From positions 1 to 64,000 of IMG/VR virus record IMGVR_UViG_3300030012_002336: a DNA stretch of 64,000 nt. The stretch is one strand, 5' to 3'. The notes beneath the pieces are model-generated. The model had not been told where the DNA came from, searched no databases, and saw nothing but the letters and a program-made list of their open reading frames with translations. Shown piece by piece: positions 22,650-35,699 of the stretch. The DNA comes from a virus. Lineage: Duplodnaviria; Caudoviricetes. How positions within the stretch are numbered: the first letter of the stretch is position 1; the number at the start of each line of letters is the position of its first letter. A program made the translations under genes and the position numbers.

Positions 22650-23465
22650 ATGGGATATACAAGACCAAGAAAAACTACTAAAGATTATTTGGTAGCAGCA
22701 CCGCTACCTAATCATGGAAAAACTTATACAGTTATTCCTCATAAAGATGTTATAGAGACAACTAAAACTCTATTAGACAACAGTGGATTTCAAATCACTA
22801 AAGAACTTTACAGAGCAAACATGAATGCTAAAGTAGCACAAGGTGTTTATCACCTTGCTTCAAATCAAGATGAAGAAATGGGGATGATGTTTGCTTGGAC
22901 TAATTCTTATGATAAAAGTACACGTTTTCAGTGTGCTGTAGGAGCTTTCGTAAATGTATGTAGTAATGGTATGTTATGTGGAGACATGGCAAACTATGCT
23001 AGAAAACATACAGGTAAAGCAGATCATGATATTCATACTCAAATAAGTTCACAAATTAAGTCAGCTAATAAGTATTATACTAAGTTAATTGATGATAAGA
23101 ATCAAATGAGAAAAATATTCTTACCTAAAAAAGATCAAGCAGAATTAGTTGGAAGATTATTCTTAGATGAAGAGATTATTGATTCATCACAAGTTTCTTG
23201 TATAAAAGCAGAAATGAAAGAACCATCTTATGATTATAAAGCTGATCTTAATAATGCTTGGACATTCTACAATCATATAACACATGCACTTAAAAAGTCA
23301 CATCCACGTACATGGATGAGTGATCAAGTTAAGTTTCATGAGTTTATGACTGCAGAATTACTTAGTCAAGCAGCACTTAAGGAGCAGGATACTAGTTGGC
23401 CTGTAGATTTTATAGCAGATATGGAAGCTCAAGAGTATGATACATTTGAAGAGTTTAAGATATAA
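22650..23465 (+). CDS. DUF932-like protein
   Basis: TYTVIPH; NSYDKS...GAFVNVCSNGM; NAWTFYN. Confidence 0.75.
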   Translation: MGYTRPRKTTKDYLVAAPLPNHGKTYTVIPHKDVIETTKTLLDNSGFQITKELYRANMNAKVAQGVYHLASNQDEEMGMMFAWTNSYDKSTRFQCAVGAFVNVCSNGMLCGDMANYARKHTGKADHDIHTQISSQIKSANKYYTKLIDDKNQMRKIFLPKKDQAELVGRLFLDEEIIDSSQVSCIKAEMKEPSYDYKADLNNAWTFYNHITHALKKSHPRTWMSDQVKFHEFMTAELLSQAALKEQDTSWPVDFIADMEAQEYDTFEEFKI

Positions 23466-24301
23466 TGCCAATAAAATATCAAAAAACTAGAACATTAGTT
23501 ACTAAGACAAATAACAATAGTAGTGACTGCATAGCACCAAATATAATTTATGGGTGCTTTGGAGGCTGTGTAGACACCTATTGTTATATGTCTAGGTTTA
23601 ATGGTGATAGAGTATTTGTTAACAAAAATGTTAATGATATATTTAATTCCGTAGTAGAATGGGAAAAATCTTATAATAAAGTTCCTAATCAACAGGATCC
23701 TGTTTATACTATGGTGGACATTGCTTGTAATTCAGATTTAGTTTTGATGCAGAAGCATATGCCAGAACCACTTCATGATTATCTTAAAAGGTATGATGAT
23801 CATCAGCAGCTTAATAGTACTATGGCTACTAAGTATCCGAGTCTACTTAAGTTAGATGTAAATCATTTTAATAAAAGGCCACGTGTGCGTGTTAGTCTTA
23901 TGCCTCAAGAGTATTCTAATATTCTAGAACCTAAAATGCAGAAGATATCATCAAGAATAGATGATGTTAATAGATTAAAGGATCTAGGATGGGAAGTACA
24001 CTTAAACTATTCACCTCTTGTATTTTATCCAGGATGGAGTAAAGAGTATGAAAGTTTATTTAAAGAAGTAAAAGATAAAGCCGGTGAGAATAAATGTGAA
24101 GTTATTGCACTTACTAATCATGTTCATCAAATGAATAGAAGTAGTGAAGAAGCAAGAGAGTTAATGAAATATTCTGATGAGATCAAAAATGCTAACGGTA
24201 TAATGCGTTATCCAATACGCCAGAAAACAAGAGCTTTAGCTAATTTTAAAATGATCTACAGTAAATATTTTAATTTACAAACTATTAGATACATATTTTA
24301 A
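23465..24301 (+). CDS. spore photoproduct lyase-like radical SAM protein
   Basis: GCFGGCVDTYCY, IACNSD, ATKY, RVSL, LEP, SPLVFYPGW are collinear with SplB motifs. Confidence 0.8.
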   Translation: MPIKYQKTRTLVTKTNNNSSDCIAPNIIYGCFGGCVDTYCYMSRFNGDRVFVNKNVNDIFNSVVEWEKSYNKVPNQQDPVYTMVDIACNSDLVLMQKHMPEPLHDYLKRYDDHQQLNSTMATKYPSLLKLDVNHFNKRPRVRVSLMPQEYSNILEPKMQKISSRIDDVNRLKDLGWEVHLNYSPLVFYPGWSKEYESLFKEVKDKAGENKCEVIALTNHVHQMNRSSEEARELMKYSDEIKNANGIMRYPIRQKTRALANFKMIYSKYFNLQTIRYIF

Positions 24302-24302
24302 A

Positions 24303-24389
24303 ATGACTGATGATCAAAAAGAAGCTATTGTCAGATTAATATTAGTAATAATATTATTAATAGTATTTGTACTAGTTCAATTGAAATGA
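24303..24389 (+). CDS. 28-aa single-TM peptide (not in ORF track)
   Basis: MTDDQKEAIVRLILVIILLIVFVLVQLK. Confidence 0.5.
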   Translation: MTDDQKEAIVRLILVIILLIVFVLVQLK

Positions 24390-24390
24390 A

Positions 24391-24457
24391 AGGGGGTCTT
24401 GGTAGCGTTAACCCCCTCTCTGTTCTCTGTAAAATTCAACCTGCACGATTACAGAGA
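24391..24457. terminator. tandem hairpins where the two gene blocks converge
   Basis: AGGGGGT/ACCCCCT and TCTCTGTAA/TTACAGAGA inverted repeats. Confidence 0.55.
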
Positions 24458-24473
24458 TATATAAGAAGTGTTA

Positions 24474-24608
24474 TTATCTACCTTGACCTCTATACTTTTT
24501 AGTATAGTTGCTACCTCCCTTATTGAATGTAGTTCTACTCTTAGCATGTCTGCCATGAGACTTTCTACTATTAGGTGAAAATGTAAATGTATTTTTCCTT
24601 GCCGCCAT
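24474..24608 (-). CDS. 44-aa basic protein ending KKYRGQGR (not in ORF track)
   Basis: MAARKNTFTFSPNSRKSHGRHAKSRTTFNKGGSNYTKKYRGQGR; TAATG coupling; this ending recurs in phage small proteins. Confidence 0.8.
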   Translation of the reverse strand: MAARKNTFTFSPNSRKSHGRHAKSRTTFNKGGSNYTKKYRGQGR

Positions 24609-24988
24609 TATGCTCTTGTAAAGAATGCATATACTACATTTGTAACTGCAGTATCATACTTTAATTTTGCACCTGTTCCATCTTCAACTACAAAAAATGC
24701 AAAATCACCAACTCCTAATTTAGTTAAGTTAGTGCTTCCACCATTATCAGTAACAAGTATATTACCAGTTCCAGTACCGCCACCATTAGTTCCTGTATTA
24801 TGAACAAATAAATATGTATCACCTTGACTTGTAGGAATAATTGACTGATTTAAAGAAGCATATGTCGTTATACCAGCTGAAGTTACTGTGCTTTCTTGTA
24901 CAGTAATAACAGGATTTAAGGTTATAGACACAGGATCACTTTGACCAGTTATAGTACCTGTAAGATTAAATAAAGTTTGTAAATTCAT
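24608..24988 (-). CDS. small beta-rich putative virion protein (paralog A)
   Basis: TGQSD...YLFVHNTG...LGVGDFAF...VVYAFF. Confidence 0.75.
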   Translation of the reverse strand: MNLQTLFNLTGTITGQSDPVSITLNPVITVQESTVTSAGITTYASLNQSIIPTSQGDTYLFVHNTGTNGGGTGTGNILVTDNGGSTNLTKLGVGDFAFFVVEDGTGAKLKYDTAVTNVVYAFFTRA

Positions 24989-25011
24989 TTTATTATTATT
25001 TTATATTATTA

Positions 25012-25416
25012 TTAATGTCTTTTTAGATAAGCATAAACGTATGTAGTAACTGAGTTATCATATACAGCCTTTAAACCTGCTTGTGCTATCAAAGGTATAA
25101 ACATTGCATCACCAACATTTAAATGTGCTATATTTGTTCCAGCACCATTTGTAAGTATAACTTTACCCCCAGTACTAAGATCTCCATTTGCACCAACATT
25201 TCTAACATATACATACTGTGTAGAACCTCCAGCTGCTGGTGCAGCAGATGTTCCTAGTATTTCAAAAGGTGTACCATTTACGGTATTTCTTGATGCAGAT
25301 GTTAGAGAAGGATTTTCAACGTTTAATTCAAAGTCAGTAAAATTAATACCTACTGAATCACTTTGACCTGTTAAACTTCCGTTTAAACTTAAACTAAATT
25401 TTACTTTATCAGCCAT
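25012..25416 (-). CDS. small beta-rich putative virion protein (paralog B)
   Basis: TGQSD...YVYVRNVG...LNVGDAMF...YVYAYL. Confidence 0.75.
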   Translation of the reverse strand: MADKVKFSLSLNGSLTGQSDSVGINFTDFELNVENPSLTSASRNTVNGTPFEILGTSAAPAAGGSTQYVYVRNVGANGDLSTGGKVILTNGAGTNIAHLNVGDAMFIPLIAQAGLKAVYDNSVTTYVYAYLKRH

Positions 25417-25434
25417 TTTTTTAAATTTTAAATA

Positions 25435-25836
25435 TTATTGTTTCTTCTTATTAAATTTTTCAACAGATCTACCACCAAAATAGGCACCAATCACTGTTAT
25501 TAATACTAACTGTAGAAGATCAGTCCACTTTTCTTCTACTGTAAATGTTAATGCACCAGCATCAATAAAGATCAATAACATAGTACATACTATCAAAAAT
25601 ATAAGAACCATAGGTCTTACATTTTTACTTAACCAACTATCAGAATTCATATCTGCCGTCCAACGGTCAGTTATATTTTTTTCCATTTGAGCTTCATGAT
25701 TCATGATTAGCTCTTTTAGTTTTCTTTTAGCGTCTAGTTTTTCTTCGTCTGTTGTTACTAAGTTATCTATTACACCACCAACTGATTCTATCAAGTTACT
25801 TCCGGCACTTGAAAAAATCTTTTTTAGTATACCCAT
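25435..25836 (-). CDS. putative holin (GTA 3TM holin-like)
   Basis: LVTTDEEK, SDSWLSKNVRP, TM segments, GAYFGGRS. Confidence 0.75.
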   Translation of the reverse strand: MGILKKIFSSAGSNLIESVGGVIDNLVTTDEEKLDAKRKLKELIMNHEAQMEKNITDRWTADMNSDSWLSKNVRPMVLIFLIVCTMLLIFIDAGALTFTVEEKWTDLLQLVLITVIGAYFGGRSVEKFNKKKQ

Positions 25837-25852
25837 ACTCTAAGTTTTAAAT

Positions 25853-25999
25853 TTATAATACACCGTTAGGGCCCACAGATTTTGATATAGGTGAGTGATA
25901 TTCACCACCACACATCATCATGTTAGATCCACCGCATTTATACATTTTCTTTTTTTTCTTGTCTTTCTTTTTTTTCTTTTTTTTATACATCATCATCAT
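25853..25999 (-). CDS. 48-aa poly-Lys/Met protein (not in ORF track)
   Basis: MMMMYKKKKKKKDKKKKKMYKCGGSNMMMCGGEYHSPISKSVGPNGVL; ATGA coupling. Confidence 0.75.
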   Translation of the reverse strand: MMMMYKKKKKKKDKKKKKMYKCGGSNMMMCGGEYHSPISKSVGPNGVL

Positions 26000-26229
26000 A
26001 ATAAACTATTTGGTCCCATTTGCATTCCATATGGACAACCACAACCTTGTACCTGTCCACCTTCAGCTTTTTTAAAGCTCTTTAATGTTTTAGCTAAGTT
26101 ACATCTACGTTTTGCTTTTGTAGATGGAGGACTCTTACAATATTCTGAGATACTTTTTCCTTCAGCTTTAGCAGCTGCAGTCAAAGCACCTGGCTTCTTT
26201 ATTGCTTTTTTTATCCAATTCTTAGCCAT
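25996..26229 (-). CDS. small basic protein (KNWI..AIKKPGAL type)
   Basis: Lys/Ala-rich, ends GPNSLL. Confidence 0.8.
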   Translation of the reverse strand: MAKNWIKKAIKKPGALTAAAKAEGKSISEYCKSPPSTKAKRRCNLAKTLKSFKKAEGGQVQGCGCPYGMQMGPNSLL

Positions 26230-26456
26230 TACTTCTTTTCAAAGAATCTATCATAGGCACCTTCCTTAACTGTTTTTACAAAAAGTTCAAATTGATCTTT
26301 TGTGAATTCAGTGTAACCTTCATCTTCTCCTCCAACAATTACCTTATCAGATTCAGTTGAGATGTCAATTGCTGGACAACTCTTACAGCTAGCACAAAAA
26401 GTCATTTGTGATCTGTTTGCACTAATTTTTACATTTTTTAATCCTTCTAATTCCAT
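26229..26456 (-). CDS. small protein with DUF397-like C-terminus
   Basis: CASCKSC; FTKDQFELFVKTVKEGAYD. Confidence 0.65.
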   Translation of the reverse strand: MELEGLKNVKISANRSQMTFCASCKSCPAIDISTESDKVIVGGEDEGYTEFTKDQFELFVKTVKEGAYDRFFEKK

Positions 26457-26460
26457 TGGT

Positions 26461-26829
26461 TTATACTTTTTTAAATTTAGCGTAATTAACTACACATGCA
26501 GCAGTATCAGAAATTAATTCTAATCCTTCTCCACCATCACAACATAAAAACATGAAGCTACCTGGAAAGAGTTTAGCATATGTATTGTTTGCCACATCTT
26601 GAACAGTTACAAAATTGGCAAGATCTGTATTTTGAATGAATATATAAGTATCAGCAGCAGTATTTGGAATAATCTCTGTAGCAGATGTTGGTATTGACAT
26701 AGATTTTGATTCTACATCAGTATTATCAAAATTTACAGTGTCTAAAACTGTGCTATTTAAACTAAATATACCACTAACTGTGTCAGCAGTATTAAGGTTT
26801 AATGAGAGATTAAGTGCTTGTGTTGCCAT
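26461..26829 (-). CDS. small beta-rich putative virion protein (paralog C)
   Basis: TYIFIQNTD...KLFPGSFMF...VNYAKF. Confidence 0.75.
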   Translation of the reverse strand: MATQALNLSLNLNTADTVSGIFSLNSTVLDTVNFDNTDVESKSMSIPTSATEIIPNTAADTYIFIQNTDLANFVTVQDVANNTYAKLFPGSFMFLCCDGGEGLELISDTAACVVNYAKFKKV

Positions 26830-27011
26830 TATATTTCAAATCCAAAGTTAAAAATCATAAATCTAAACTTTTTACAACTGCTGCCTGTGTTTTTACATTT
26901 CCAGCAAGGACAGTACATTAATTCAAATATTGTCCATGTACCTAGTCTAAAATTTATCTCATACTTTTCTTTCTTATTTCCTGATCTCCAGGAATTAATC
27001 CAATTTATCAT
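26829..27011 (-). CDS. small protein with CxxC motifs
   Basis: WINSW...RLG...CPCWKC...FRFMIFNFGFEI; coupled to next gene. Confidence 0.7.
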   Translation of the reverse strand: MINWINSWRSGNKKEKYEINFRLGTWTIFELMYCPCWKCKNTGSSCKKFRFMIFNFGFEI

Positions 27012-27036
27012 AATAAAATAATTTATGTTATATTAT

Positions 27037-27051
27037 TAATATACAAAAAAA
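27037..27051 (-). promoter_or_regulatory. putative late promoter (T-run)GTATATTA
   Basis: Same motif at 33560 and 35887; variant at 61038. Confidence 0.6.
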
Positions 27052-27061
27052 TAAGTGAAAA

Positions 27062-28135
27062 TTAAAGTATGATATAGTTTATTCCAAACTTGAAATCATG
27101 CCAGTCACGGTTCCAATATTTATTATATTTTCCCTCAATAAAAATACCTAAGTTCTTATTGATCTTATAACCAAATATTAAACCACCAGAATAATCTATC
27201 CAATTGCCACCATTAAAATTATGATAAGAGTATTCACCCCCTGTATCCAAATGCACGGGTAGTAGGTTCGCCCAAGAATGAAACCATATTGTTTTAGTGT
27301 AGTGATAGTAGTCTAAACCAACTACTAGAGAATGACACCACTGAACAGGTAATGCATCCTTTTTTGATTTCACATAATCATTAAGAACTTGGGGGACCAC
27401 TACCTCTTCCCATACTTCACTACTTGTAGCCACGACCGCTCCACTAGGGTCTAAGTAGCTTATTCCTGTTGGGTCAAACCCAATTGTGTAGCCTTCTTCT
27501 AAAGCAAGGTTTGTGTAGTGTATGTTTCCGTTAGATAGCACCCACTCAGACAAAGGGTCATAACCGTAAGGTTCTGATATTCTTTGTACAGCTCCTGCAG
27601 TAACTGATAGTTTTCTACCTATCTTTTGTCTATATCGTTGTGACGCTTCCATGTATTCTACATCAGCAAAGCCGTCTTGTAAGTACTCTATCTTAACCAC
27701 CCATCTATCTGCCAAGTATCGTAAAAAGTGATGTTGGTCTACATAAGAGTCACCCTGTTGTCTTTTGTAATCTGCCTCAAACAAAAACTCAAATCCTCTA
27801 GTTCGTCCAATAGTAGCGGCATCAGAGTATGATGTTTCTGTACCATCTTTGAATGTGTTAGCTTTATTCTCGTATCCAAATCTTTGTATTTTTCTTACAC
27901 CTACAGTAAAAGCATAGTCAAATGGAGTTTTTATTACATCGGTTTGAAGTCCATCTAATATAGAATATGTATTCTGATCTGAAATAGAAGTACCACCATT
28001 TACTGCAGCATAGAATGTAGAGAACTTAAAAGTTTTCTTAAGTCCTGTTTTAAACTTGCTATCCTGAGCACAACACTTTTTAGGTGCTATACAAGACAAT
28101 AATAGTAATAATATGGTCAGTAGTATTTTTTTCAT
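27062..28135 (-). CDS. putative outer-membrane beta-barrel protein
   Basis: N-terminal signal or lipoprotein leader, alternating aromatic beta-strands, C-terminal FKFGINYIIL strand. Confidence 0.7.
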   Translation of the reverse strand: MKKILLTILLLLLSCIAPKKCCAQDSKFKTGLKKTFKFSTFYAAVNGGTSISDQNTYSILDGLQTDVIKTPFDYAFTVGVRKIQRFGYENKANTFKDGTETSYSDAATIGRTRGFEFLFEADYKRQQGDSYVDQHHFLRYLADRWVVKIEYLQDGFADVEYMEASQRYRQKIGRKLSVTAGAVQRISEPYGYDPLSEWVLSNGNIHYTNLALEEGYTIGFDPTGISYLDPSGAVVATSSEVWEEVVVPQVLNDYVKSKKDALPVQWCHSLVVGLDYYHYTKTIWFHSWANLLPVHLDTGGEYSYHNFNGGNWIDYSGGLIFGYKINKNLGIFIEGKYNKYWNRDWHDFKFGINYIIL

Positions 28136-31119
28136 TATAGTTTAATTATCTTCTTAGTTATTCTTATTTTATCATATGTGATAATCAAATTATACATACC
28201 ATTAGGATAATCTGATAAATCAACTCTTTTTATATTGTCTACTTCAATAATCTCACCTACTATATTGTACAATTCTACATCAATATTTAATCTTGTTTCT
28301 ATTGTAAATGTATTTGCTGTTGGATTAGGGTATACAATAATATCACTACCGGATAGTTCATCAATATTAACTGGCCATCCTTCTTCACAATAATTATACA
28401 TAGATTGACAGGTCTCATCCCATATCTCAGTACAACAATAGTTATCTATATCTATAACCCAAGCATAACAAGGATCGTTTAACCAATAAGGTTCTCCAGG
28501 CCCACCATAGCAACCAGCATCATAAAGACAAATACTATTGTCTGGTAAGTTAACTAGCGGATCATAGTTGTATGCATTAGGATCAGCACATCCTTCTATT
28601 ATAACTACACAGCTACCATCATCAAAGCAAGCATCTTCATCATAGTTTAGTGCAGTGGTATCAGTACAACCTCCAAGATAACAACAAGAGTTATCTAAAG
28701 TATTTGCTAGCGGATCAAAGTTAAGAGCTGTTGTATCTGTACAACCATATACAAATTCTATACAAGTACCATTATCTGTGTTAGCAGCTGGATCATAGTT
28801 AAATGCTGTGCTATCTATACACCCATATATTACAGGTACACATGAACCATTGTCTGTATTAGCTGTAGCGTCATAGTTAAAAGCAGTAGGGTCTGTACAA
28901 CCGTATACTATACCAATACAACTGCCATCATCATCAGTTGCTTCCGGCATATAGTTAATAGCAGCTACACTAGTGCATCCTAGTATTTCAAGCTCATCAC
29001 AAATTCCATCTGAGTCAGCATCATTTATACATATATCACTGCAGTTATAATACTGATCAGGATAAGTACATCCTCCACTATCTGCATTTGCACCTGGATT
29101 ATAGTTGCATGCTGAAGAGTCAGTGCAACCTAAATATATACAAGCACCATCATCCTCATTTGCATCTGCATTGTAGTTCCAAGCTGTATTATCAGTACAC
29201 CCAACTACAAGAGCTACACAAGAATCATCATCTACATTAGCTTCTGGATTGTAGTTAAATGCTAAATCATTTGTGCAACCTTCTACTACAGGTTCACATG
29301 ATCCGTCATCAGTATTTGCATCTTCATTATAGTTAAATGCTGTTGGGTCTAAACAACCAACAACTGTAGGTATACAGTATGTACCACAAAAAGGTATGTC
29401 TATATACTTTGTCCAGAAAGGAGATGTAAAGTTTTGTAGAGCACCTTGACCGTTATCTGCAAATGGATTATAACCTTCATACATTAGTTCAACACCATTA
29501 GCATTAGTTAGCTTAAATGAATTGTGCCAGGTTTGAAACTCTACTTCTTGAGGTGGTTGCTGTGGCCCTCCTACCTCAAAGTAATATACTTCAACTGGCA
29601 CACCTGGATCTAGTATAAGACCAAATGTTTGTTCATAAGATCCTGGGCCCATTGTATATGTACCTATTATGAGACCATTCTGCATAATTCCCAAGTAAGA
29701 ATTACCCCAACCATCACCTCCTGCATCACCTATCCATAGTTCATAGTTGCAGTCTGGAACTAAATCCATTATAGTTGCATTAGGATCATAGTTAAAAGCA
29801 TTTGGGTTAGTGCATCCATAAGTGTGTAATGTAGCACATGACTCATCATCTTCATTAGCTTCCGGGTTAAACTCAACATAGTCATCATCTATACAACCAG
29901 GTATTGCTGGTATAGTAGGACAAGGGTTTGCATTTTGTGCTCCTGAATATAATACATCACCAAAGCCTGCATTATCCATATTCCATAAAGTATCTCCAGC
30001 ACAATCATAAACTACAATTGTGCCATCCATGTTACCACCTGAAGAAGACCCTGCCATACCATCACCATAAGTATCTGTAACAATTAATTCCCATGGTGCA
30101 ATTTGATCTACACAAAAAGTATAAGTATATGTTTGACCTATATCTTGAAAGTTATATGATCCACTAGGCATTTCCATGCCTTGTCCAGAATTGGTAACCA
30201 TTGTCCAACCTGTTTCTCCTGGCCAGTTGTCAAACATAATCTCCATTGTAATTTGATATTGAGATGTAGTATCACAAGATGTTCCTGTGCAAGTACCATC
30301 ATCAAATGTTGCCCATGGGTTATAAGCTATTTGTGTGGGATCTGTACAGCCAGCAATGCATGGAGATGGTGTATAAGCTATTGTATCAGACACAGAACCA
30401 TCTATAAATTCTAATACACAGTAGTGCTCTACACTCCAGTTAGGTGGCATTTGTCCATTACCTGCTATAAATCCAAAGTTATTTACAGGAGCTGGTGGAA
30501 AGCTTATAGGACCTAAACCTTCTTCATTTGATACAAGAATATTAGTTACTTCACAATTAGGATTGTAGTCATCTAATGTCCATTCAAATATTATTTGTGT
30601 TTGTGTTCCACCACCTATACATATATCATATACATTAGATGTAAGAATCCCATCACAACCTGGATACTCACATGAGCCATCATCCACAGTTGCAGCAGGA
30701 TTAAAGTTTATTGCTAAAGAATCTAAACATCCAGCAATAGGGGGTGCACAAGGAGCTATAGTTAATGTATCTACTAATTGTAATCCAAAGTCACCTTCTG
30801 CATAGAATAGTGTATCTTGACATTCATTTTGTATAAGAAACCAACCATCAGTTCCTCCCCATTGAGAAGCTCCAAGACCATCACCATAGTCATCATCTAA
30901 TTCAATAATATACTCTCCTGCTAATACATTTATAACTGTATCATATAGTGTAAGTTCTGCTAGAGAAGAGTCTGTAGCAGCTATAGCAGCACCGCTAATA
31001 TCATATATAGACCATGAAGTTTCTTCTGGATAGTCATCTGTTTGTAGTTGAACATTTATCCAAGATTCTTGCGTAAATACTAGTATTGGTACTAGTAAAA
31101 AGAATATTAGTTTTTTCAT
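28135..31119 (-). CDS. secreted Cys/Asp-repeat protein with T9SS type A sorting domain
   Basis: Sec leader; about 14 GCxDxxAxNY/FxxxAxxDDGxC repeats; C-terminal VYPNP...LYNIVG...DLSDYPNGMY...KKIIKL. Confidence 0.9.
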   Translation of the reverse strand: MKKLIFFLLVPILVFTQESWINVQLQTDDYPEETSWSIYDISGAAIAATDSSLAELTLYDTVINVLAGEYIIELDDDYGDGLGASQWGGTDGWFLIQNECQDTLFYAEGDFGLQLVDTLTIAPCAPPIAGCLDSLAINFNPAATVDDGSCEYPGCDGILTSNVYDICIGGGTQTQIIFEWTLDDYNPNCEVTNILVSNEEGLGPISFPPAPVNNFGFIAGNGQMPPNWSVEHYCVLEFIDGSVSDTIAYTPSPCIAGCTDPTQIAYNPWATFDDGTCTGTSCDTTSQYQITMEIMFDNWPGETGWTMVTNSGQGMEMPSGSYNFQDIGQTYTYTFCVDQIAPWELIVTDTYGDGMAGSSSGGNMDGTIVVYDCAGDTLWNMDNAGFGDVLYSGAQNANPCPTIPAIPGCIDDDYVEFNPEANEDDESCATLHTYGCTNPNAFNYDPNATIMDLVPDCNYELWIGDAGGDGWGNSYLGIMQNGLIIGTYTMGPGSYEQTFGLILDPGVPVEVYYFEVGGPQQPPQEVEFQTWHNSFKLTNANGVELMYEGYNPFADNGQGALQNFTSPFWTKYIDIPFCGTYCIPTVVGCLDPTAFNYNEDANTDDGSCEPVVEGCTNDLAFNYNPEANVDDDSCVALVVGCTDNTAWNYNADANEDDGACIYLGCTDSSACNYNPGANADSGGCTYPDQYYNCSDICINDADSDGICDELEILGCTSVAAINYMPEATDDDGSCIGIVYGCTDPTAFNYDATANTDNGSCVPVIYGCIDSTAFNYDPAANTDNGTCIEFVYGCTDTTALNFDPLANTLDNSCCYLGGCTDTTALNYDEDACFDDGSCVVIIEGCADPNAYNYDPLVNLPDNSICLYDAGCYGGPGEPYWLNDPCYAWVIDIDNYCCTEIWDETCQSMYNYCEEGWPVNIDELSGSDIIVYPNPTANTFTIETRLNIDVELYNIVGEIIEVDNIKRVDLSDYPNGMYNLIITYDKIRITKKIIKL

Positions 31120-31122
31120 ATG

Positions 31123-31446
31123 TTAAAATTTATTAGCAAGTAGTTCATCAATATATGCTTGCACTTCTTTTGCATCTGCCTTCATAGTAAATGATATATC
31201 TGCTTGATATCTTTTTACTTCTTCACCATCATCAAATATTATAATTGTAGGAACTACTGCTATATTATGCTTTTCTTGTTGTTTTGGTTTGTCTGCTATA
31301 TCTACATATGCTATATCACAGTCTACTAAATCATTACACCATTCTACATCATTTGTAGAGTTCCACCCTGCATTATATTGAATAACTTCTACCTGCCCAT
31401 AGACAATAGAAGACATTAAACAAAATATAAAAAATATATTTTTCAT
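31123..31446 (-). CDS. exported thioredoxin-fold protein lacking CxxC
   Basis: Signal peptide; YNAGWNSTN in place of WCxxC; IAVVPTIIIFDDGEEVKR. Confidence 0.75.
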   Translation of the reverse strand: MKNIFFIFCLMSSIVYGQVEVIQYNAGWNSTNDVEWCNDLVDCDIAYVDIADKPKQQEKHNIAVVPTIIIFDDGEEVKRYQADISFTMKADAKEVQAYIDELLANKF

Positions 31447-31724
31447 TTTAATCTATCTATTTTATCCTCTATACGTTTTAAATCTTCTTTTATTTCCTCA
31501 ACATCATCTTGAGTATTTTGAATTGTTAAACGTATATTTTTATCTTTCATATCAAACTCCATTCTTGTCACATCTGGATTTGGTGGTATAGGTAGTTCTT
31601 TAGCCTCAGCAATATCTGCCTGTAGAACAAACCACATACTTACTAAAGTAGTAATTAAAAAACCTATTCCACCAAGTGTCTTTAGGCTTATTTCAAATTT
31701 TGAATCTTCTGATAGTTCTTTCAT
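31443..31724 (-). CDS. single-TM coiled-coil protein
   Basis: TM segment, PIPPNP linker, heptad C-terminus. Confidence 0.75.
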   Translation of the reverse strand: MKELSEDSKFEISLKTLGGIGFLITTLVSMWFVLQADIAEAKELPIPPNPDVTRMEFDMKDKNIRLTIQNTQDDVEEIKEDLKRIEDKIDRLK

Positions 31725-32119
31725 TTTATACCTCCTTTTCTCATATAACCATTACCTGAAAATATAATCATCTTATCTTTATTTGCACCTCCTCTTTTCT
31801 TTGGTGATGACTTAGGCCCTGGATTTGATGTTTTTAATTTTCTTACATTATTTGTCATTGAAGTCAATTGATTTTGATTTTCTAAAAGTTTGTTTTGACT
31901 CTCAATTAGTTGGTTATTGAGTTGAAGTTGTTTAATAATCTCTTTTTGATTATTCATTATAGATTGCTGATTGAGTTCAGCTTGCTCTTGTGGTGTAGGC
32001 ATTCTATTAGGATCTGGTTGTGGGATATTAACAAAATCAGTTATAGGTGGTCTTCCAATTCTAGAAACCTTTCTAGGACTGTCTCCTCCTGTTCTATATT
32101 TTATTGTACGTCTATACAT
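31721..32119 (-). CDS. basic, Gln/Asn-rich protein
   Basis: ATG 32119 likely; YRTGG and MRKGG motifs. Confidence 0.65.
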   Translation of the reverse strand: MYRRTIKYRTGGDSPRKVSRIGRPPITDFVNIPQPDPNRMPTPQEQAELNQQSIMNNQKEIIKQLQLNNQLIESQNKLLENQNQLTSMTNNVRKLKTSNPGPKSSPKKRGGANKDKMIIFSGNGYMRKGGIK

Positions 32120-32507
32120 CCCAATCAACACCTATATTTCCAGTATTTACACCAAATAATTCTGTATTAGGTAAAATTTCTAATACTCTAGAGCTTCCTG
32201 GGTTATTATCTGTAAGGAACGCTAATATTCCATCTGCAAGTTTAAAAGAAAAAGTGCTAGGAAGAGCTCCACTATCATTATTAATTGTAAAACTACAATC
32301 TTTTTTAGTATGTTCAAAGAATGTTCCATTATGGCCAGCTTCTTTAATTGTAACAATTAATTTATTTCCAGCATTGTGTTTTATTATTACATTATTATCA
32401 CACGGTATTGATAGTATATCACTACTATCAGTATCATGAATTATGATAAATTTTGGAAGAGCTGGAGTTAGTTGCTCAAATGATCTTGTGTCTTTACTAT
32501 ATCCCAT
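32112..32507 (-). CDS. hypothetical putative virion protein
   Basis: 131 aa; LPKFII start resembles next gene. Confidence 0.7.
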   Translation of the reverse strand: MGYSKDTRSFEQLTPALPKFIIIHDTDSSDILSIPCDNNVIIKHNAGNKLIVTIKEAGHNGTFFEHTKKDCSFTINNDSGALPSTFSFKLADGILAFLTDNNPGSSRVLEILPNTELFGVNTGNIGVDWDV

Positions 32508-32526
32508 TTTTTAAATTTTTATATTG

Positions 32527-32937
32527 TTAAGCGTTAGCATTAAAATCTATAGCTAATCCTGTTACATTTACAGAAGATGGTATAGTACTTAAATTATCCC
32601 CATCTAATCTTATTACCCCACCATTAGCCCCATCATTTGGATTAGTAGTTCCAACTCCTGCAATAACGTTTGTTAAATCTCTTATTAATCTACCCCTATC
32701 TCCAGCAGCACATGTTAGCTTAATTGCTACATCTTTAATATCTGCACCAATATTAGCATGACCAGCATCTAAACAAATTATACTTACGGTTGTAGTATTA
32801 CTTGACTCTGCTTTTATAAACACTTTATTATTCAATCCAATTGGAACTATTATTGTGTCTCTTAGAGTAGAACCAACATTTGTAGTATGTTTAGCTATTA
32901 AATATTTAGGTAAATGTCTTGTTTTTAACTTATCCAT
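32527..32937 (-). CDS. hypothetical putative virion protein
   Basis: 136 aa; LPKYLI. Confidence 0.7.
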   Translation of the reverse strand: MDKLKTRHLPKYLIAKHTTNVGSTLRDTIIVPIGLNNKVFIKAESSNTTTVSIICLDAGHANIGADIKDVAIKLTCAAGDRGRLIRDLTNVIAGVGTTNPNDGANGGVIRLDGDNLSTIPSSVNVTGLAIDFNANA

Positions 32938-32949
32938 AATTATAAATTT

Positions 32950-33513
32950 TTATAGTACACCATTTGCTCCAGTTGCTCCTCTACGGCCACCGCCTCTAGA
33001 ACCTATAGCTTTATTATATTCAGAAACTTCACTTGCCAAACTTCTTTGTTTTGCTGTATTTCTGCTTTCAGCTGCTGCTCTTGCTACTTCAGATGCTAAT
33101 GCTTGTGATTGATTCCTTTGTACAGTAGCTAGGTCTCTTGGATCAGCTAAACGAACATTAATTGGACTTTTTGCTCCAGGTGGTGTATATTGAACAATAC
33201 CCTTTCCTGGTCCTTTTGCTAGACTAGCAGATTTAAATGTTCTTGGATCTACTCTATTAACTAATTTTGGTAATGGTTCTGGTTTAAATTTTGTTTGTTT
33301 TACATTAGGTTTTTCTAATGTATCTCTTTTAATAGGGTTTCTAGTACCTGCTGTTTTAAACCTCTGAGAAAATTTACTAAAAGGAAGCTTAGTTTGAGGC
33401 TTTATTAGTAACTGGGCATTTAAGTTATTACTTGGTGTAATACTTTGTAATGCATCATTTGTTCTTTGACCATGAGATTGTTTCTCTTGGTTTGCTCTTT
33501 TTCTTGACGCCAT
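32950..33513 (-). CDS. basic low-complexity protein ending GANGVL
   Basis: Lys/Arg-rich; downstream of late motif. Confidence 0.75.
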   Translation of the reverse strand: MASRKRANQEKQSHGQRTNDALQSITPSNNLNAQLLIKPQTKLPFSKFSQRFKTAGTRNPIKRDTLEKPNVKQTKFKPEPLPKLVNRVDPRTFKSASLAKGPGKGIVQYTPPGAKSPINVRLADPRDLATVQRNQSQALASEVARAAAESRNTAKQRSLASEVSEYNKAIGSRGGGRRGATGANGVL

Positions 33514-33536
33514 AACTTTAATTAATTAATTATTAT

Positions 33537-33575
33537 TATATTTGCTTTTCTTATATAGATAATATACAAAAAAAA
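33537..33575. promoter_or_regulatory. face-to-face promoters: host-type (+) and late-type (-)
   Basis: TATATTTG at 33537-33544 (+); TTTTTTTTGTATATTA at 33560-33575 (-). Confidence 0.6.
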
Positions 33576-33584
33576 CTTTGAAAT

Positions 33585-33770
33585 ATGAAAACACATGAAT
33601 TTAAAATAGAATTTCTAACAGATAGTCCACTATTAGGACTACATATGACACAATTTGATAGAAAGAATAGTGATACCTTAAGATGGAATCCAACCATGAA
33701 AATCTCTTTAGGTTTTCTATTTTTTCATTTTACTTACATAAATACAGATTATACAATAGAAAAGGATTAA
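33585..33770 (+). CDS. hypothetical protein
   Basis: 61-aa ORF upstream of RNR. Confidence 0.6.
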   Translation: MKTHEFKIEFLTDSPLLGLHMTQFDRKNSDTLRWNPTMKISLGFLFFHFTYINTDYTIEKD

Positions 33771-33839
33771 ATTTTCACTATATTATTATTACCTGACTAT
33801 CTCAGGTATCTCAATTATTAACTACTAAATACAATAAAA

Positions 33840-35699
33840 ATGGAATTGAATAACAAGATTCTAAGTGATATCACTGTCCATATGAAATATGCACGGTATA
33901 ATCCTGAATTAAAAAGAAGAGAGACCTGGGAAGAACTGGTCACTAGAAATATGAATATGCACCTTAAAAGATATCCTAAACTGTCAGATGATATAAAAGG
34001 GGCCTATGACTATGTACTTGATAAAAAAGTACTACCATCTATGAGATCTATGCAGTTTGGTGGCAAACCAATAGAAATTTCTCCTAATAGAATATATAAC
34101 TGTGCTTATCTTCCTATAGATAGTGTAGATGCATTTAGTGAAACTATGTTTTTACTACTTGGAGGAACCGGTGTTGGTTACTCTGTACAAAGACATCATG
34201 TAGATAAACTACCACTAATTAATAAACCATATAAAAAAAGAACAAGACGTTACCTAATTGGTGACTCTATAGAGGGCTGGGCAGATGCTATTAAGATGTT
34301 AATGAAATCTTATTTAAATGGTAAAAGCTCACGTATAGTATTTGACTATTCAGATATCAGACCAAAAGGTGCTAGACTAGTAACATCAGGTGGTAAAGCT
34401 CCTGGACCACAACCATTAAAAGAATGTATACTTAAGATTACAGGTGTTCTTCAAAATAAAGAAGATGGTGATTCACTTAGTACACTTGAAGCACATGATA
34501 TCATATGTTACATAGCTGATGCTGTATTAGCTGGTGGTATTAGACGTGCTGCTCTTATTAGCTTATTTAGTGCTGATGATGATGAAATGATATCTTGCAA
34601 GTCTGGTGCATGGTGGGAACTTAACCCTCAGCGTGGTAGAGCTAATAACTCTGCTGTTCTTATGAGACATAAGATAACTAAATCTTTCTTTATGGATCTA
34701 TGGAAAAGAGTTGAGTTAAGTAAAGCCGGTGAACCTGGTATCTACTTTAATAATGATAAAGACTGGGGTACAAACCCATGTTGTGAAATTGCTTTACGTC
34801 CTTTTCAGTTCTGTAACTTATGTGAAGTTAATGTAAGTAATATTGAGTCTCAAGAAGATCTTGAACTAAGAGTCAAAGCTGCTGCATTTATAGGGACACT
34901 TCAAGCAGGATATACTAACTTCCACTATCTCAGACCAGTATGGCAAGAGACTACAGAAAAAGATGCACTAATTGGTGTATCTATGACTGGTATAGGATCT
35001 GGTAGAATACTTGGTTATGATATGGAAGCTGCTGCTAAAGTGGTTAATAAAGAGAATTCACGTGTTGCTAAATTAATTGGTATCAGAAGAGCTGCTAGAA
35101 CAACAACAGTAAAACCTGCTGGTACAACATCATTAACATTAGGGACTAGCTCTGGTATACATGCATGGCATAATGATTACTACATTAGAAGAATACGTGT
35201 AGGTAAGAATGAAGCTATATATACATACCTTGCTAACAATCATCCTGCTCTTGTAGAGGATTGTGTGTTCCGTGGTCATGATACTGCTGTAATAAGCATA
35301 CCTCAATCAGCACCTAAAGGTTCTATTCTTAGAACTGAGTCTGCTTTTCAATTGCTTGAAAGAGTAAAAAGAGTGGCAACTGAGTGGGTGAAGACTGGAC
35401 ATAGATCTGGATCTAATACTCATAATGTATCTGCTACTATCAGTTTAAAAGATGAAGACTGGGAGTTAGCTGGTGACTGGATGTGGAAAAATAGAGATCA
35501 TTACAATGGTCTAGCTGTTCTTCCATATGACGGAGGTACTTATACCCAAGCTCCTTTTGAAGATATTTCTAAAGAAAAGTATGATGAAATGGCTAAGTCA
35601 TTAATGGATATTGATCTATCTCAGATCATTGAAGAAAATGATGAAACCAATCTAACAGGAGAGCTAGCATGTGCTGGTGGTAATTGTGAAGTCAAGTAA
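33840..35699 (+). CDS. nrdJ: class II (B12-dependent) monomeric ribonucleotide reductase
   Basis: KYAR..RRETW, YNC, GGIRRAA, TNPCCEI, FCNL, VKPAGT, C-terminal ACAGGNCEV. Confidence 0.93.
   Translation: MELNNKILSDITVHMKYARYNPELKRRETWEELVTRNMNMHLKRYPKLSDDIKGAYDYVLDKKVLPSMRSMQFGGKPIEISPNRIYNCAYLPIDSVDAFSETMFLLLGGTGVGYSVQRHHVDKLPLINKPYKKRTRRYLIGDSIEGWADAIKMLMKSYLNGKSSRIVFDYSDIRPKGARLVTSGGKAPGPQPLKECILKITGVLQNKEDGDSLSTLEAHDIICYIADAVLAGGIRRAALISLFSADDDEMISCKSGAWWELNPQRGRANNSAVLMRHKITKSFFMDLWKRVELSKAGEPGIYFNNDKDWGTNPCCEIALRPFQFCNLCEVNVSNIESQEDLELRVKAAAFIGTLQAGYTNFHYLRPVWQETTEKDALIGVSMTGIGSGRILGYDMEAAAKVVNKENSRVAKLIGIRRAARTTTVKPAGTTSLTLGTSSGIHAWHNDYYIRRIRVGKNEAIYTYLANNHPALVEDCVFRGHDTAVISIPQSAPKGSILRTESAFQLLERVKRVATEWVKTGHRSGSNTHNVSATISLKDEDWELAGDWMWKNRDHYNGLAVLPYDGGTYTQAPFEDISKEKYDEMAKSLMDIDLSQIIEENDETNLTGELACAGGNCEVK

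Follow-up and report, generated by a model that had tools for sequence, protein, structure and literature searches.

A conserved four-gene cassette for exported proteins, with a predicted type IX secretion cargo, beside the lysis genes of a crAss-like phage

A distantly crAss-like tailed phage carries four co-conserved genes that lie next to its lysis genes, and their products are predicted to be exported, with one protein per layer of the host envelope. The genes are found in a 64,000-nt stretch of viral DNA (the window; positions 1 to 64,000 of IMG/VR record IMGVR_UViG_3300030012_002336) and encode a coiled-coil membrane protein (TM), a thioredoxin-fold protein (TRX), a large Cys- and Asp-rich protein (BIG) and a predicted outer-membrane β-barrel (BAR). 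The preferred reading, given a probability of roughly 0.4, is a late-expressed cassette that would remodel the surface of the infected cell using the host type IX secretion system (T9SS).

Organization of the Cassette

All four ORFs sit exactly where the original prediction had placed them, on the minus strand, with TM at 31443-31724 (93 aa), TRX at 31123-31446 (107 aa), BIG at 28135-31119 (994 aa) and BAR at 27062-28135 (357 aa). The overlap of TM with TRX is 4 nt, a 3-nt gap separates TRX from BIG, and BIG and BAR have 1 nt in common, which agrees with the tight coupling that had been proposed. The upstream gene (31721..32131, minus strand, 136 aa) also overlaps TM by 4 nt; it is placed outside the cassette because it is present in just 2 of 80 barrel-anchored loci. 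The cassette indel described below is bounded upstream by this gene and downstream by a gene for a 60-aa Cys-rich protein (26829..27011, minus strand). The minus-strand array also includes the gene for a 3-TM holin (25435..25836), which lies downstream of BAR at a distance of three small genes and matches phrog_3427 (E 5.5e-33) and PF11351 (25.9 bits, cut-off 24.8). The export or membrane signals claimed for all four proteins are reflected in conserved N-terminal hydrophobic segments, which were counted in ORFs away from locus edges (BAR 76/77, BIG 59/62, TRX 63/63 and TM 54/62); the same check found no such segments in the genes neighbouring the cassette.

Conservation and Mobility

Of 80 related viral loci, 59 carry the four genes together on the same strand, and the other 21 are cut by the locus end on the relevant side, so that all four are present in 59/59 informative loci. 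Co-conservation had been proposed as a check on the original prediction and is clear from these loci. The genes are arranged in the order TM-TRX-BIG-BAR (25 loci), BAR-TM-TRX-BIG (22 loci) or BIG-BAR-TM-TRX (9 loci), which are cyclic permutations. BAR, TM and TRX are 53–98% conserved (the range for BAR identity across the 80 loci), whereas BIG varies in length, its homologues spanning 411–1465 aa.

Among five genomes that are at least 90% complete, drawn via TerL and not via BAR, BAR is present in two and absent from three. One relative without it, G410, is close to this phage (TerL 84%, RNR 84% and DNA polymerase 76% identical), and its homologues of the two flanking genes at 26829-27011 and 31721-32131 lie 48 nt apart. 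Exactly these four genes are therefore missing between the flanking genes in G410, which makes the block a discrete, accessory cassette. The cassette is also found on contigs where the TerL and MCP of G001 were not found, one of which carries a TerL of another family. The cassette is best read as a horizontally mobile accessory unit, judging from these sequence comparisons.

Phage Origin and Host

The contig is from a real tailed phage. A near-identical relative of 114 kb is 98% complete and features TerL, portal and MCP genes. The original prediction had noted that the block might be host DNA mis-assembled into the contig, however, phage genes flank it in each of 80 independent viral contigs, and this synteny identifies it as phage DNA. 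A search of cellular genomes, one from each of 185,579 species, returned only five BAR matches, all of them on metagenome-bin contigs (3/5 from Bacteroidota), and of 401 Flavobacteriaceae genomes the TM profile matched just one, on the contig of such a bin. BAR has 3,642 homologues, none of which is named, and belongs to a phage-only family. By TerL and MCP, the phage is closest to crAss-like phages whose hosts are Bacteroides, Flavobacterium, Cellulophaga and Azobacteroides. Together with the metagenome bins, these relatives are best read as indicating that this uncultured marine phage infects Bacteroidota. PorV and PorP/SprF were found in 13/13 sampled Flavobacteriaceae genomes.

TM and TRX

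TM begins with a short cytoplasmic segment, followed by one TM helix at about aa 17–35 (31620-31676, minus strand) and a predicted periplasmic coiled coil of about 58 aa, in line with the coiled-coil membrane protein that had been proposed. The charge distribution suggests a bitopic inner-membrane protein. In an alignment of 47 sequences (A4) the mean column identity is 64%, and R54-M55-E56 and M59-K60-D61 are invariant. Searches with TM against Pfam, PHROG and the PDB gave no match of note.

TRX as a single sequence reaches 22.7 bits against PF00085, just under the cut-off of 23.5, and a profile of 51 sequences matches 112 thioredoxin-family sequences from the PDB (E ≤ 0.01, best 3.2e-10). 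The signal peptide (aa 1–17), the thioredoxin fold and the missing CxxC of the original prediction all stand, however, the proposal that WNSTN replaces CxxC does not. The profile alignment to PDB thioredoxins has a 5-residue gap at the position of CGPC, so the CxxC has been deleted, not substituted. The segment NAGWNSTN (31351-31374) spans the WCGPC site, no row of a 61-row TRX alignment has a CxxC at the active-site position, and the cis-Pro loop (VVPT) is retained. TRX is thus predicted to be exported and to have a thioredoxin fold that lacks an active site. PDI b/b' domains likewise have a thioredoxin fold and a cis-Pro loop without CxxC, and they are used for binding and not for catalysis, however, the sequence relation of TRX to them is limited to the general fold. 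TRX might act as a chaperone of the Cys-rich BIG.

BIG and the T9SS Sorting Domain

BIG features a signal peptide (31072-31119), four β-sandwich domains (29395-31068), a region of Cys/Asp repeats (28525-29358), a conserved Cys module, VDxYCCxxxWDxxCQxxYxYC (28375-28512), and a type A T9SS C-terminal domain (CTD; 28141-28335), all on the minus strand. The description as a 994-aa Cys/Asp-repeat protein is accurate: there are 53 Cys and 101 Asp, and the repeat GCxDxxAxNYxxxAxxDDGSC, a unit of ~21 aa, is present in at least 11 copies at a spacing of about 26 aa. The predicted type A CTD was confirmed with the proposed TIGR04183 search, which gave 46.5 bits (cut-off 23) at aa 929–993, and PF18962 matches the same residues with 46.1 bits (cut-off 27). 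The BIG family has 2,633 matches, and PF18962 is found on 118 of the top 120. The AlphaFold2 model (pLDDT 68.9) has matches of low TM-score to tandem FnIII/Ig arrays and to giant adhesins. BIG looks extracellular because it is modelled as tandem β-sandwiches and is variable in length, unlike the conserved BAR, TM and TRX, and it is probably an exported, hypervariable, adhesin-like protein.

The CTD suggests that BIG is exported through the host T9SS. The T9SS claim of the original prediction holds in that the CTD here is genuine, however, it depends on this domain, and reliance on the T9SS is not shared by all versions of the cassette, since TIGR04183 matches just 30 of the 63 distinct tails of BIG among the relatives. 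The remaining 33 have a short tail of ~45 aa, for which hhalign gives a 2.3% probability of a relation to the CTD tail, and none of 10 short tails searched against NCBIfam models matched at E ≤ 1. Among the complete relatives T9SS cargo tracks the presence of the cassette, with TIGR04183 matches in 0/3 barrel-less and 1/2 barrel-bearing genomes.

BAR

BAR matched no family in Pfam (PF24653 included), NCBIfam or PHROG. Its AlphaFold2 model, built with 36 homologues (pLDDT 73.2, pTM 0.63), features long antiparallel strands and 12–14 strands arranged as an outer-membrane β-barrel. All 45 matches listed by Foldseek against the PDB are transmembrane β-barrels with TM-scores of 0.5 or below; they include NanC, the OmpF family, OccK, chitoporin and AlgE, and point to no specific porin family. 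These results favour the barrel-like fold that had been proposed, and BAR is probably an outer-membrane β-barrel, with moderate model confidence. An insert of ~77 aa (aa 188–264, 27344-27574) is highly conserved and contains a long helix, and the invariant residues of BAR cluster within it. The C-terminal residue is F in no more than 39 of 79 homologues (L in 21 and R in 19). Among the Atlas neighbours, those with a name belong to autotransporter, OmpG and cyanophage OMP families (score 0.93), which serve as a lead only. Assignment as a porin or receptor, as in the original prediction, is unsupported, BAR being in no known family. Comparison by hhalign gave 0.4% for PorP/SprF, without signal peptides, and 0.2% for PorV, in a test that is not very sensitive, as the control of PorP against PorV reached only 36.6%.

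Linkage to Lysis Genes

The distance from the cassette to a holin or endolysin gene is at most 500 bp in 19/80 loci, at most 1.5 kb in 35/80 and at most 3 kb in 52/80, the endolysins belonging to phrog_894/PF08291 and phrog_33083. In 34 informative loci anchored on gene c7, holin and cassette are both present in 33 and both absent in one, with no discordant locus. The holin is likewise present in 2/2 barrel-bearing and absent from 3/3 barrel-less TerL-sampled genomes, and G410 is missing both holin and cassette while the genes between them, c7 and c17, are kept. An endolysin gene also borders the cassette on a second backbone (L023). The original prediction had missed this adjacency and co-variation, which open a lysis-related reading of the block.

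Proposed Function and Alternative Explanations

In the surface-remodelling reading, all four products would be exported by the host Sec system and together would cover every envelope layer. TM would be anchored in the inner membrane with its coiled coil in the periplasm, TRX would remain periplasmic as a redox-dead protein, and BAR would insert into the outer membrane. These three would form a constant, highly conserved platform of assembly, holding or anchoring factors, and BIG, the variable and outward-facing part, would be handed to the T9SS and placed on, or released from, the cell surface. The cassette would be transcribed together with the late and lysis genes, and the cell surface remodelled shortly before lysis. 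The most likely purpose would be receptor masking, leading to superinfection exclusion or keeping progeny off debris, with adhesion as an alternative. Counting against this reading are the many BIG tails that TIGR04183 does not match, the moderate confidence of the barrel model and the mixed C-terminal residues of BAR, the i-spanin-like topology of TM, the putative nature of any benefit from surface display just before lysis, and the fact that BAR falls outside PorP/SprF and PorV, the barrel families with which T9SS cargo is known to work. The adjacency to and co-variation with lysis genes fit a lysis role at least as well.

The main rival, which is possible but rather doubtful, is a lysis-linked trans-envelope device in which TM, TRX as periplasmic adaptor and BAR form an outer-membrane-disruption or lysis-control arm, either spanin-like, with the barrel replacing the usual lipoprotein, or acting to regulate the 3-TM holin, and in which BIG is a passenger or sensor. 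Besides the linkage and the topology of TM, this device is favoured by the 24–34 kb minus strand of the window, where no other lipobox ORF was found; no spanin candidate other than TM was found in the window, and in G410 a type II membrane protein of 261 aa with a coiled coil is encoded at another place instead. However, a hypervariable, T9SS-tagged, adhesin-like protein of 1 kaa fits no known lysis mechanism, yet BIG is present in 59/59 informative loci. We know of no β-barrel o-spanin or Trx-fold spanin component, and spanins are usually far less conserved than TM, TRX and BAR. Several close relatives have, in addition to the cassette, a small Pro-rich lipoprotein (c15) beside the holin, and this lipoprotein would be the more conventional choice of o-spanin. 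In L026 and L074, no recognised lysis gene is found in the >7 kb that lie on the downstream side of the cassette. Position does not discriminate, as secreted 'moron' genes classically sit beside lysis genes too, for example stx in Stx phages.

Nutrient uptake, with BAR as a porin or channel that raises solute uptake in infection and the other three proteins unrelated or accessory, is quite improbable, although such a role has been proposed for cyanophage and huge-phage OMPs. It would fit the Foldseek matches to porins and substrate channels, and the 10–22-stranded OMPs of huge phages often neighbour transport genes according to the available part of a 2026 preprint (10.64898/2026.10.24.761521). 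However, those matches have low TM-scores, transport genes are found in 0/80 catalogued neighbourhoods, and the strict linkage of BAR to BIG, TRX, TM and the holin is left unexplained. It is similarly hard to credit that the four are independent genes, merely adjacent. Physical interaction among the proteins is something we infer, and BIG sits 2–3 kb from TRX in some loci (L038, L046, L047, L075 and L080), however, the complete co-occurrence, the persistence of the set through cyclic permutation, the single clean four-gene indel and the move as a set onto a second backbone all speak for a unit. Least credible of all is that the block is mis-assembled host DNA or encodes virion structural proteins. 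Its G+C of 0.33–0.36 is slightly above that of the flanks (about 0.28–0.32), but the viral synteny and the scarcity of cellular matches argue against host DNA, and cleavable signal peptides speak against tailed-phage virion proteins.

Relation to Known Systems

Pairs such as SprB/SprF, and other type B CTD/PorP-like pairs, combine T9SS cargo with an adjacent cognate barrel, and PorV is the shuttle for type A cargo. In these Bacteroidota systems, as in the cassette, a large repetitive surface protein is encoded beside an outer-membrane barrel of ~300–400 aa, however, the CTD is type A rather than type B, and BAR is not detectably PorP/SprF. Phage λ Lom is a phage-encoded outer-membrane β-barrel. 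Lom, the cyanophage OMPs (PF24653/IPR056410) and the huge-phage OMPs resemble BAR as signal-peptide barrels for the host outer membrane, often with envelope-related neighbour genes. As far as the sources cover them, the known phage OMPs mostly have host homologues (OmpA, OmpX, TonB-dependent receptors), whereas none was found in cells for BAR, and the BAR phages are ~115 kb compared with >200 kb for huge phages. T9SS, thioredoxin and spanin do not occur in the main text of the huge-phage preprint (10.64898/2026.10.24.761521). Two-component spanins (Rz/Rz1 type; see also PMC10865782) also pair a type II inner-membrane coiled-coil protein with an outer-membrane partner beside holin and endolysin genes. 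Here, the partner is a 333-aa barrel and not a small lipoprotein, and the cassette adds a Trx-fold protein and a 1-kaa secreted protein and is unusually conserved.

The original prediction knew of no such phage system, a view that holds only in part. Phage T9SS cargo and phage OMPs are both on record, while literature searches found no description of the four-part cassette. In the available part of their study, Bellas et al. (2020, PMC7468147) reported genes with type A T9SS CTDs in 'Cryophage' that, like BIG, are highly variable between phage variants, and proposed that the phage hijacks the host T9SS to secrete its proteins or attach them to the membrane. That part describes the 'Cryophage' cargo as recognisable enzymes or a PA14 protein in scattered variable islands and mentions no partner barrel, Trx-fold or membrane protein, whereas the cargo described here is adhesin-like, of no known family, and encoded in a fixed four-gene cassette by the lysis genes.

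Phage genome and probable host

The window lies within a 73,949-bp IMG/VR record (G000) that is 63% complete according to CheckV and that encodes phage genes for a DNA polymerase, a helicase, an ATPase, a ribonucleotide reductase (RNR), and a 3-TM holin (25435-25836, minus strand). The missing part is supplied by a relative, G001 (114,213 bp, 98% complete, 98–99% identity in the genes compared), which features the terminase large subunit (TerL), the portal, and the major head protein (MCP). Among cultured phages, the G001 TerL and MCP have their nearest relatives (~25% identity) in crAss-like phages that infect Bacteroides, Flavobacterium, Cellulophaga, and Azobacteroides. The phage thus belongs to a distant marine crAss-like lineage, and its host is probably a member of the Bacteroidota.

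Giant ORFs on the minus strand run through the window from 35931 to 64000 and on to position 73878 of G000. They encode proteins of 1925, 5225, 1214, 1162, 991, and 2087 aa and occupy ~40 kb of the ~114-kb genome. No Pfam match was found for the five giant ORFs searched, which are those within or beginning in the window (the 991- and 2087-aa ORFs excluded), and no PHROG match for the 1925- and 1214-aa ORFs or for the 955-aa in-window reading as which the 1,162-aa ORF was searched. The RNR gene (33840-35699; phrog_367, E = 5.9e-135) is on the plus strand and splits the long minus-strand array, so that the genes from the cassette to the holin would form a transcription block apart from the giant ORFs.

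Organization and conservation of the cassette

The cassette consists of four minus-strand genes at 27062-31724. These encode TM, a predicted coiled-coil inner-membrane protein (93 aa, 31443-31724), TRX, a thioredoxin-fold protein (107 aa, 31123-31446), BIG, a protein with a C-terminal sorting domain (994 aa, 28135-31119), and BAR, a predicted barrel (357 aa, 27062-28135). The TM and TRX genes overlap by 4 nt, TRX and BIG are separated by 3 nt, and BIG and BAR have 1 nt in common. Hydrophobic N-terminal segments are found in nearly all of the homologous ORFs (BAR 76/77, BIG 59/62, TRX 63/63, and TM 54/62), and conserved segments of this kind are absent from the genes neighbouring the cassette. 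The export signals mostly end in A, S, or G followed by Q, which we take to be the Bacteroidota 'Q-rule' for signal peptidase I; in the BIG protein of the window the hydrophobic segment is followed by T|Q at residues 16/17. The mean column identity in the homologue alignments is 62% for BAR, 64% for TM, and 50% for TRX.

A scan of IMG/VR with BAR identified 97 relatives, the best 80 of which (53–98% identity) were kept. In these 80 loci, tblastn found BAR in 80, BIG in 72, TRX in 64, and TM in 64, all on the same strand, and ORF clustering placed all four genes in 59 loci. In the other 21, the locus stops at most 1.9 kb beyond the block, on the side on which the absent genes would be expected, and no informative locus among the 80 is without a cassette member. 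The co-conservation implied by the original prediction of an operon is borne out by these counts. The gene orders are cyclic permutations of one another, TM-TRX-BIG-BAR (25 loci), BAR-TM-TRX-BIG (22), and BIG-BAR-TM-TRX (9), and the four genes are one unit. BIG was not found by tblastn in L215, L222, and L223, three loci with a divergent BAR (34–36%). Inspection of one of these, L223, revealed immediately ahead of the holin a gene for a secreted, Cys-rich protein of 248 aa whose C-terminal strands are similar.

BAR has 3,642 homologues at E ≤ 0.001, and among the 120 listed there is no Pfam domain or informative name; the longest contigs of the homologues listed are at most 147 kb. BIG has 2,633 homologues, with PF18962 on 118 of the 120 listed. 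In a one-genome-per-species set (185,579 species) BAR gave five matches, all on metagenome-bin contigs, of which three are assigned to Bacteroidota and two are implausible (Nitrosopelagicus and Rickettsiales). The TM profile matched one of 401 Flavobacteriaceae genomes, and this match is that bin's own contig. Cultured-phage searches with the block DNA, the BIG protein, and the BAR protein gave no match. Judged from these searches, the distribution of the cassette appears to be phage-only.

The cassette as an accessory element

The lineage was also sampled through TerL (at least 600 contigs) so that genomes were not chosen through BAR. Five such genomes are at least 90% complete. BAR, TM, and the holin are all present in G412 and G413, and all three are absent from G410, G414, and G415; TIGR04183 is found in none of the three barrel-less genomes and in one of the two barrel-bearing genomes. 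G410 is closely related, with identities of 84% in TerL, 84% in RNR, and 76% in DNA polymerase. Its homologues of 26829-27011 and 31721-32131 are 48 nt apart, and in the window exactly the four-gene block lies between them. The cassette is also found on G003 and G004, where the G001 TerL and MCP were not found, and G003 features a TerL from another Pfam family; with completeness values of 80% and 72%, respectively, the absence is firm only for the terminase type of G003. The cassette is accessory, discrete, and mobile.

BIG and its sorting tail

The C-terminus of BIG (aa 929-993) matches TIGR04183 with 46.5 bits (cut-off 23) and PF18962 with 46.1 bits (cut-off 27). Both scores are above the curated cut-offs and confirm the predicted type A CTD, the C-terminal sorting domain for the Bacteroidota type IX secretion system (T9SS). 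A ~21-aa unit, 'GCxDxxAxNYxxxAxxDDGSC', recurs at least 11 times with a period of ~26 aa, and the protein contains 53 Cys and 101 Asp residues. An AlphaFold2 model from a 62-sequence alignment (pLDDT 68.9, pTM 0.28) places four β-sandwich domains (aa 18-575), the mini-repeats, a Cys module (aa 867-925, low confidence), and the CTD sandwich in this order. Foldseek matched the model to tandem FnIII/Ig arrays and to the giant adhesins MpIBP, SiiE, and the Aureispira grappling-hook protein, all with low TM-scores, which is consistent with a generic extracellular 'beads on a string' architecture. An Atlas feature search with aa 17-585 gave uninformative scores below 0.8. The first β-sandwich (30889-31041, minus strand) features a second, weak match to a T9SS CTD model (16.3 bits, below the cut-off), which probably reflects only the common sandwich fold.

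BIG homologues range from 411 to 1465 aa and differ in their tails. TIGR04183 was found at E ≤ 0.01 in 30 of 63 distinct BIG tails among the relatives. The remaining 33 have a ~45-aa tail in common, 'ITDLLGRP...LFYIYDDGTVEKK', which follows the same conserved Cys module. Because both tail types have a 'WxGPxPxR' linker in common, truncation of a CTD had seemed a possible origin of the short tail. The comparison does not support this origin: hhalign gave a probability of 2.3% for a relation of the two tails. None of 10 short tails matched any NCBIfam model at E ≤ 1. On the BAR tree one clade has entirely type A tails (26 rows). In the other, 37 rows have the short tail and 4 the type A tail, and a minimum of four changes of tail label is required. 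This quick IQ-TREE phylogeny, with a midpoint root only, suggests that the CTD is ancestral. All 13 Flavobacteriaceae genomes sampled encode PorV and PorP/SprF, which shows only that the likely hosts have a T9SS.

BAR, a predicted outer-membrane barrel

BAR has no match in Pfam, NCBIfam, PHROGs, or PDB sequences. The AlphaFold2 model from a 36-sequence alignment (pLDDT 73.2, pTM 0.63) features 13–14 long antiparallel strands; an insert of ~77 residues (aa 188-264) contains a long helix. All 45 Foldseek matches listed are membrane β-barrels, at TM-scores of at most 0.5, and they include NanC, the EspP barrel, FapF, PcoB, porins, and BamA/TamA. The model thus supports a membrane-barrel fold class and no particular family. 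The original call of a barrel-like protein holds at this level, with a signal peptide in nearly every homologue, on a model of moderate quality. The last residue in 79 homologues is F (39), L (21), or R (19), and it is L in the window; a lipobox-like motif is found in 15 of the 79.

Several known families were compared with BAR. There is no Pfam match to PF11751 (PorP/SprF). Alignment of the BAR profile by hhalign with 13 Flavobacteriaceae PorP/SprF sequences gave a probability of 50.7%, over the N-terminal 84 columns only, when the signal peptides were kept and 0.4% when they were trimmed. The value for 12 PorV sequences (PF19572 family), with signal peptides removed, was 0.2%. An identity of BAR with PorP/SprF or PorV is therefore not detectable, in comparisons whose sensitivity is limited, since the PorP vs PorV control reached only 36.6%. 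The cyanophage OMP-like family PF24653 was likewise rejected; it gave no Pfam match at E ≤ 0.1 and only an Atlas feature similarity of 0.93. In one 314-aa protein, P0222, an FGE-sulfatase domain (PF03781, aa 37-206) is combined with a match for the C-terminal third of BAR, which may reflect either a gene fusion or a chimeric gene prediction.

TRX and TM

As a single sequence TRX scores 22.7 bits against the Pfam thioredoxin model, just below the cut-off of 23.5. A profile of 51 homologues matched 112 thioredoxin-family sequences in the PDB at E ≤ 0.01 (best 3.2e-10). The alignment to 2vim has a 5-residue gap exactly at CGPC, CxxC is found at the active-site position in 0 of 61 aligned sequences, and the cis-Pro loop, VVPT, is present. 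The predicted thioredoxin fold and the absence of CxxC are therefore supported; the proposal that WNSTN replaces CxxC is not, as the gap falls at that position. TM features a single hydrophobic helix and, after it, a heptad-like stretch of ~58 residues; it has no family match in Pfam, PHROG, or the PDB. A complex prediction for BAR(24-357), TM(36-93), and TRX(18-107), with TRX as the partner, gave values of 0.04 and 0.01 (mark 0.32), which says nothing either way.

Linkage to lysis genes

The holin closes a minus-strand array in which the cassette occupies the distal end, and this lysis-gene linkage is a point that the original prediction missed. Of the 80 loci, 61 encode a holin or endolysin that could be recognised (M15 peptidase PF08291/phrog_894 or phrog_33083). 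The distance from such a gene to the block is at most 500 bp in 19 loci, and the number of loci rises to 35 for a limit of 1.5 kb and to 52 for 3 kb. When c7, a small gene between the block and the holin, was used as an anchor, 34 of 36 loci were informative. Block and holin are both present in 33 and both absent in one (G410), with no discordant locus. G410 has kept c7 and c17, which lie between block and holin, yet block and holin are both gone. Relatedness among the loci and a single double-negative leave this test with little power.

The topology of TM, an N-terminal TM helix followed by a coiled coil, and its lysis-side position fit an i-spanin; no spanin family model matched. The 24–34 kb region of the window contains no lipobox ORF except BAR, and no small outer-membrane lipoprotein gene of the o-spanin type was found there in or next to the TM gene. 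In 15 loci of relatives a 63–68-aa Pro-rich lipoprotein with the lipobox VGC, which is absent from the window, is encoded either in the BIG-BAR interval or immediately ahead of the holin (for example L018:7765-7956 and L223:10970-11176). It is a candidate for a conventional o-spanin-like protein. Directly before the TM gene, 12 loci feature a ~70-aa protein with an N-terminal coiled coil and a C-terminal TM helix (L028:3615-3824 and L040:10208-10441 in relatives) and a weak match to phrog_1193 'hemolysin' (E = 0.0049). Between its RNR gene and a giant ORF, G410 encodes a type II membrane protein of 261 aa that features a long coiled coil (L204:11636-12421); it also encodes a 99-aa TM coiled-coil protein (L204:8776-9075). 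Neither is found in G000, and both may belong to an alternative lysis system.

Possible functions

The reading that we favour, with a probability of about 0.4, is that of a late-expressed envelope-remodelling cassette. Sec and, in this phage, the host T9SS would carry BIG to the cell surface or into the medium, and BAR, TRX, and TM would form a conserved platform that assembles, holds, or anchors BIG. The likely purpose would be receptor masking or adhesion; porin-type nutrient uptake is unlikely. The main rival, that TM, TRX, and BAR form a lysis-linked trans-envelope device, is a weaker proposal and is rather doubtful. The position of the cassette beside the lysis genes, its co-variation with the holin, and the topology of TM argue for such a device, which would leave BIG and TRX unexplained. 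Secreted 'moron' genes are also classically located beside lysis genes, and because of this the position fits both lysis and envelope remodelling. That the four are unrelated neighbour genes is unlikely beside the 59 complete loci. It is also unlikely that the block, found on several related genomes, is a mis-assembly, or that its products, with their export signals, are virion proteins.

A bolder proposal, slightly less probable than the lysis device, is that TM, TRX, and BAR are a self-contained phage trans-envelope machine that is swapped together with a particular holin. It would consist of an inner-membrane anchor (TM), a redox-dead thioredoxin adaptor (TRX), and a new outer-membrane barrel (BAR). 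The trio itself could export or anchor the variable BIG, and trio-driven export would account for the 33 of 63 tails without a T9SS signal. Alternatively, the trio could represent a new class of spanins or lysis controllers, built on a barrel, for use in Bacteroidota, a group in whose phages we know of few recognised spanins. If the trio is such a machine, either version would add a new kind to the phage envelope systems.

Significance and relation to known systems

Marine Flavobacteriia phages help to control the turnover of algal-bloom carbon. To our knowledge, how they treat the Bacteroidota envelope is largely unknown, including outer-membrane lysis, superinfection exclusion, and use of the T9SS. 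The ~3,600 barrel homologues indicate that the system is abundant in the ocean. The cassette is abundant in global metagenomes, strongly conserved, apparently phage-specific, portable between phage backbones, and cleanly delimited. These properties make it a well-defined object for transfer into Flavobacterium johnsoniae and testing there. It could show either the co-option of the T9SS by a virus that re-dresses its host or a novel means of disrupting the outer membrane. In addition, the cassette provides a putative new family of outer-membrane barrels, as modelled, and a naturally active-site-deleted thioredoxin fold.

Two parts of the cassette have precedents in phages. A type A T9SS cargo is encoded by 'Cryophage', as reported in 2020 (PMC7468147), and phage β-barrel outer-membrane proteins (OMPs) were surveyed in phages of >200 kb in 2026 (preprint 10.64898/2026.10.24.761521). 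The terms T9SS, thioredoxin, and spanin do not occur in the text of this preprint. The literature searches turned up no account of a cassette uniting the four parts, the supplementary tables of the OMP survey being outside the scope. The original statement that this was not described as a phage system thus applies to the four-part cassette and not to phage T9SS cargo or OMPs taken singly.

Other features of the region

A sigma-70 promoter scan (78 matches vs 62.8 ± 8.8) and a terminator scan (5 vs 4.7) were at the level of shuffled sequence, and a Bacteroidetes -33/-7 pattern gave 7 matches vs 4.7 expected. Four marine DNA runs over 24000-34000 gave short Logan contigs only, none of them across the block; these have no bearing on the assembly, and their depth peaks cannot rank genes. 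Paralogues of ~125 aa without signal peptides are encoded at 24608-24988, 25012-25416, and 26461-26829, and possibly at 32112-32507 and 32527-32937. This family has no family match and is scattered about the cassette and holin, with 109 ORFs in 55 of the 80 loci. A 278-aa protein with a Cys-rich N-terminal motif (23465-24301, plus strand) has no PHROG match and is 86% conserved in G410. A single tRNA gene, a tRNA-Arg with the anticodon TCT, lies at 635-709 on the plus strand.
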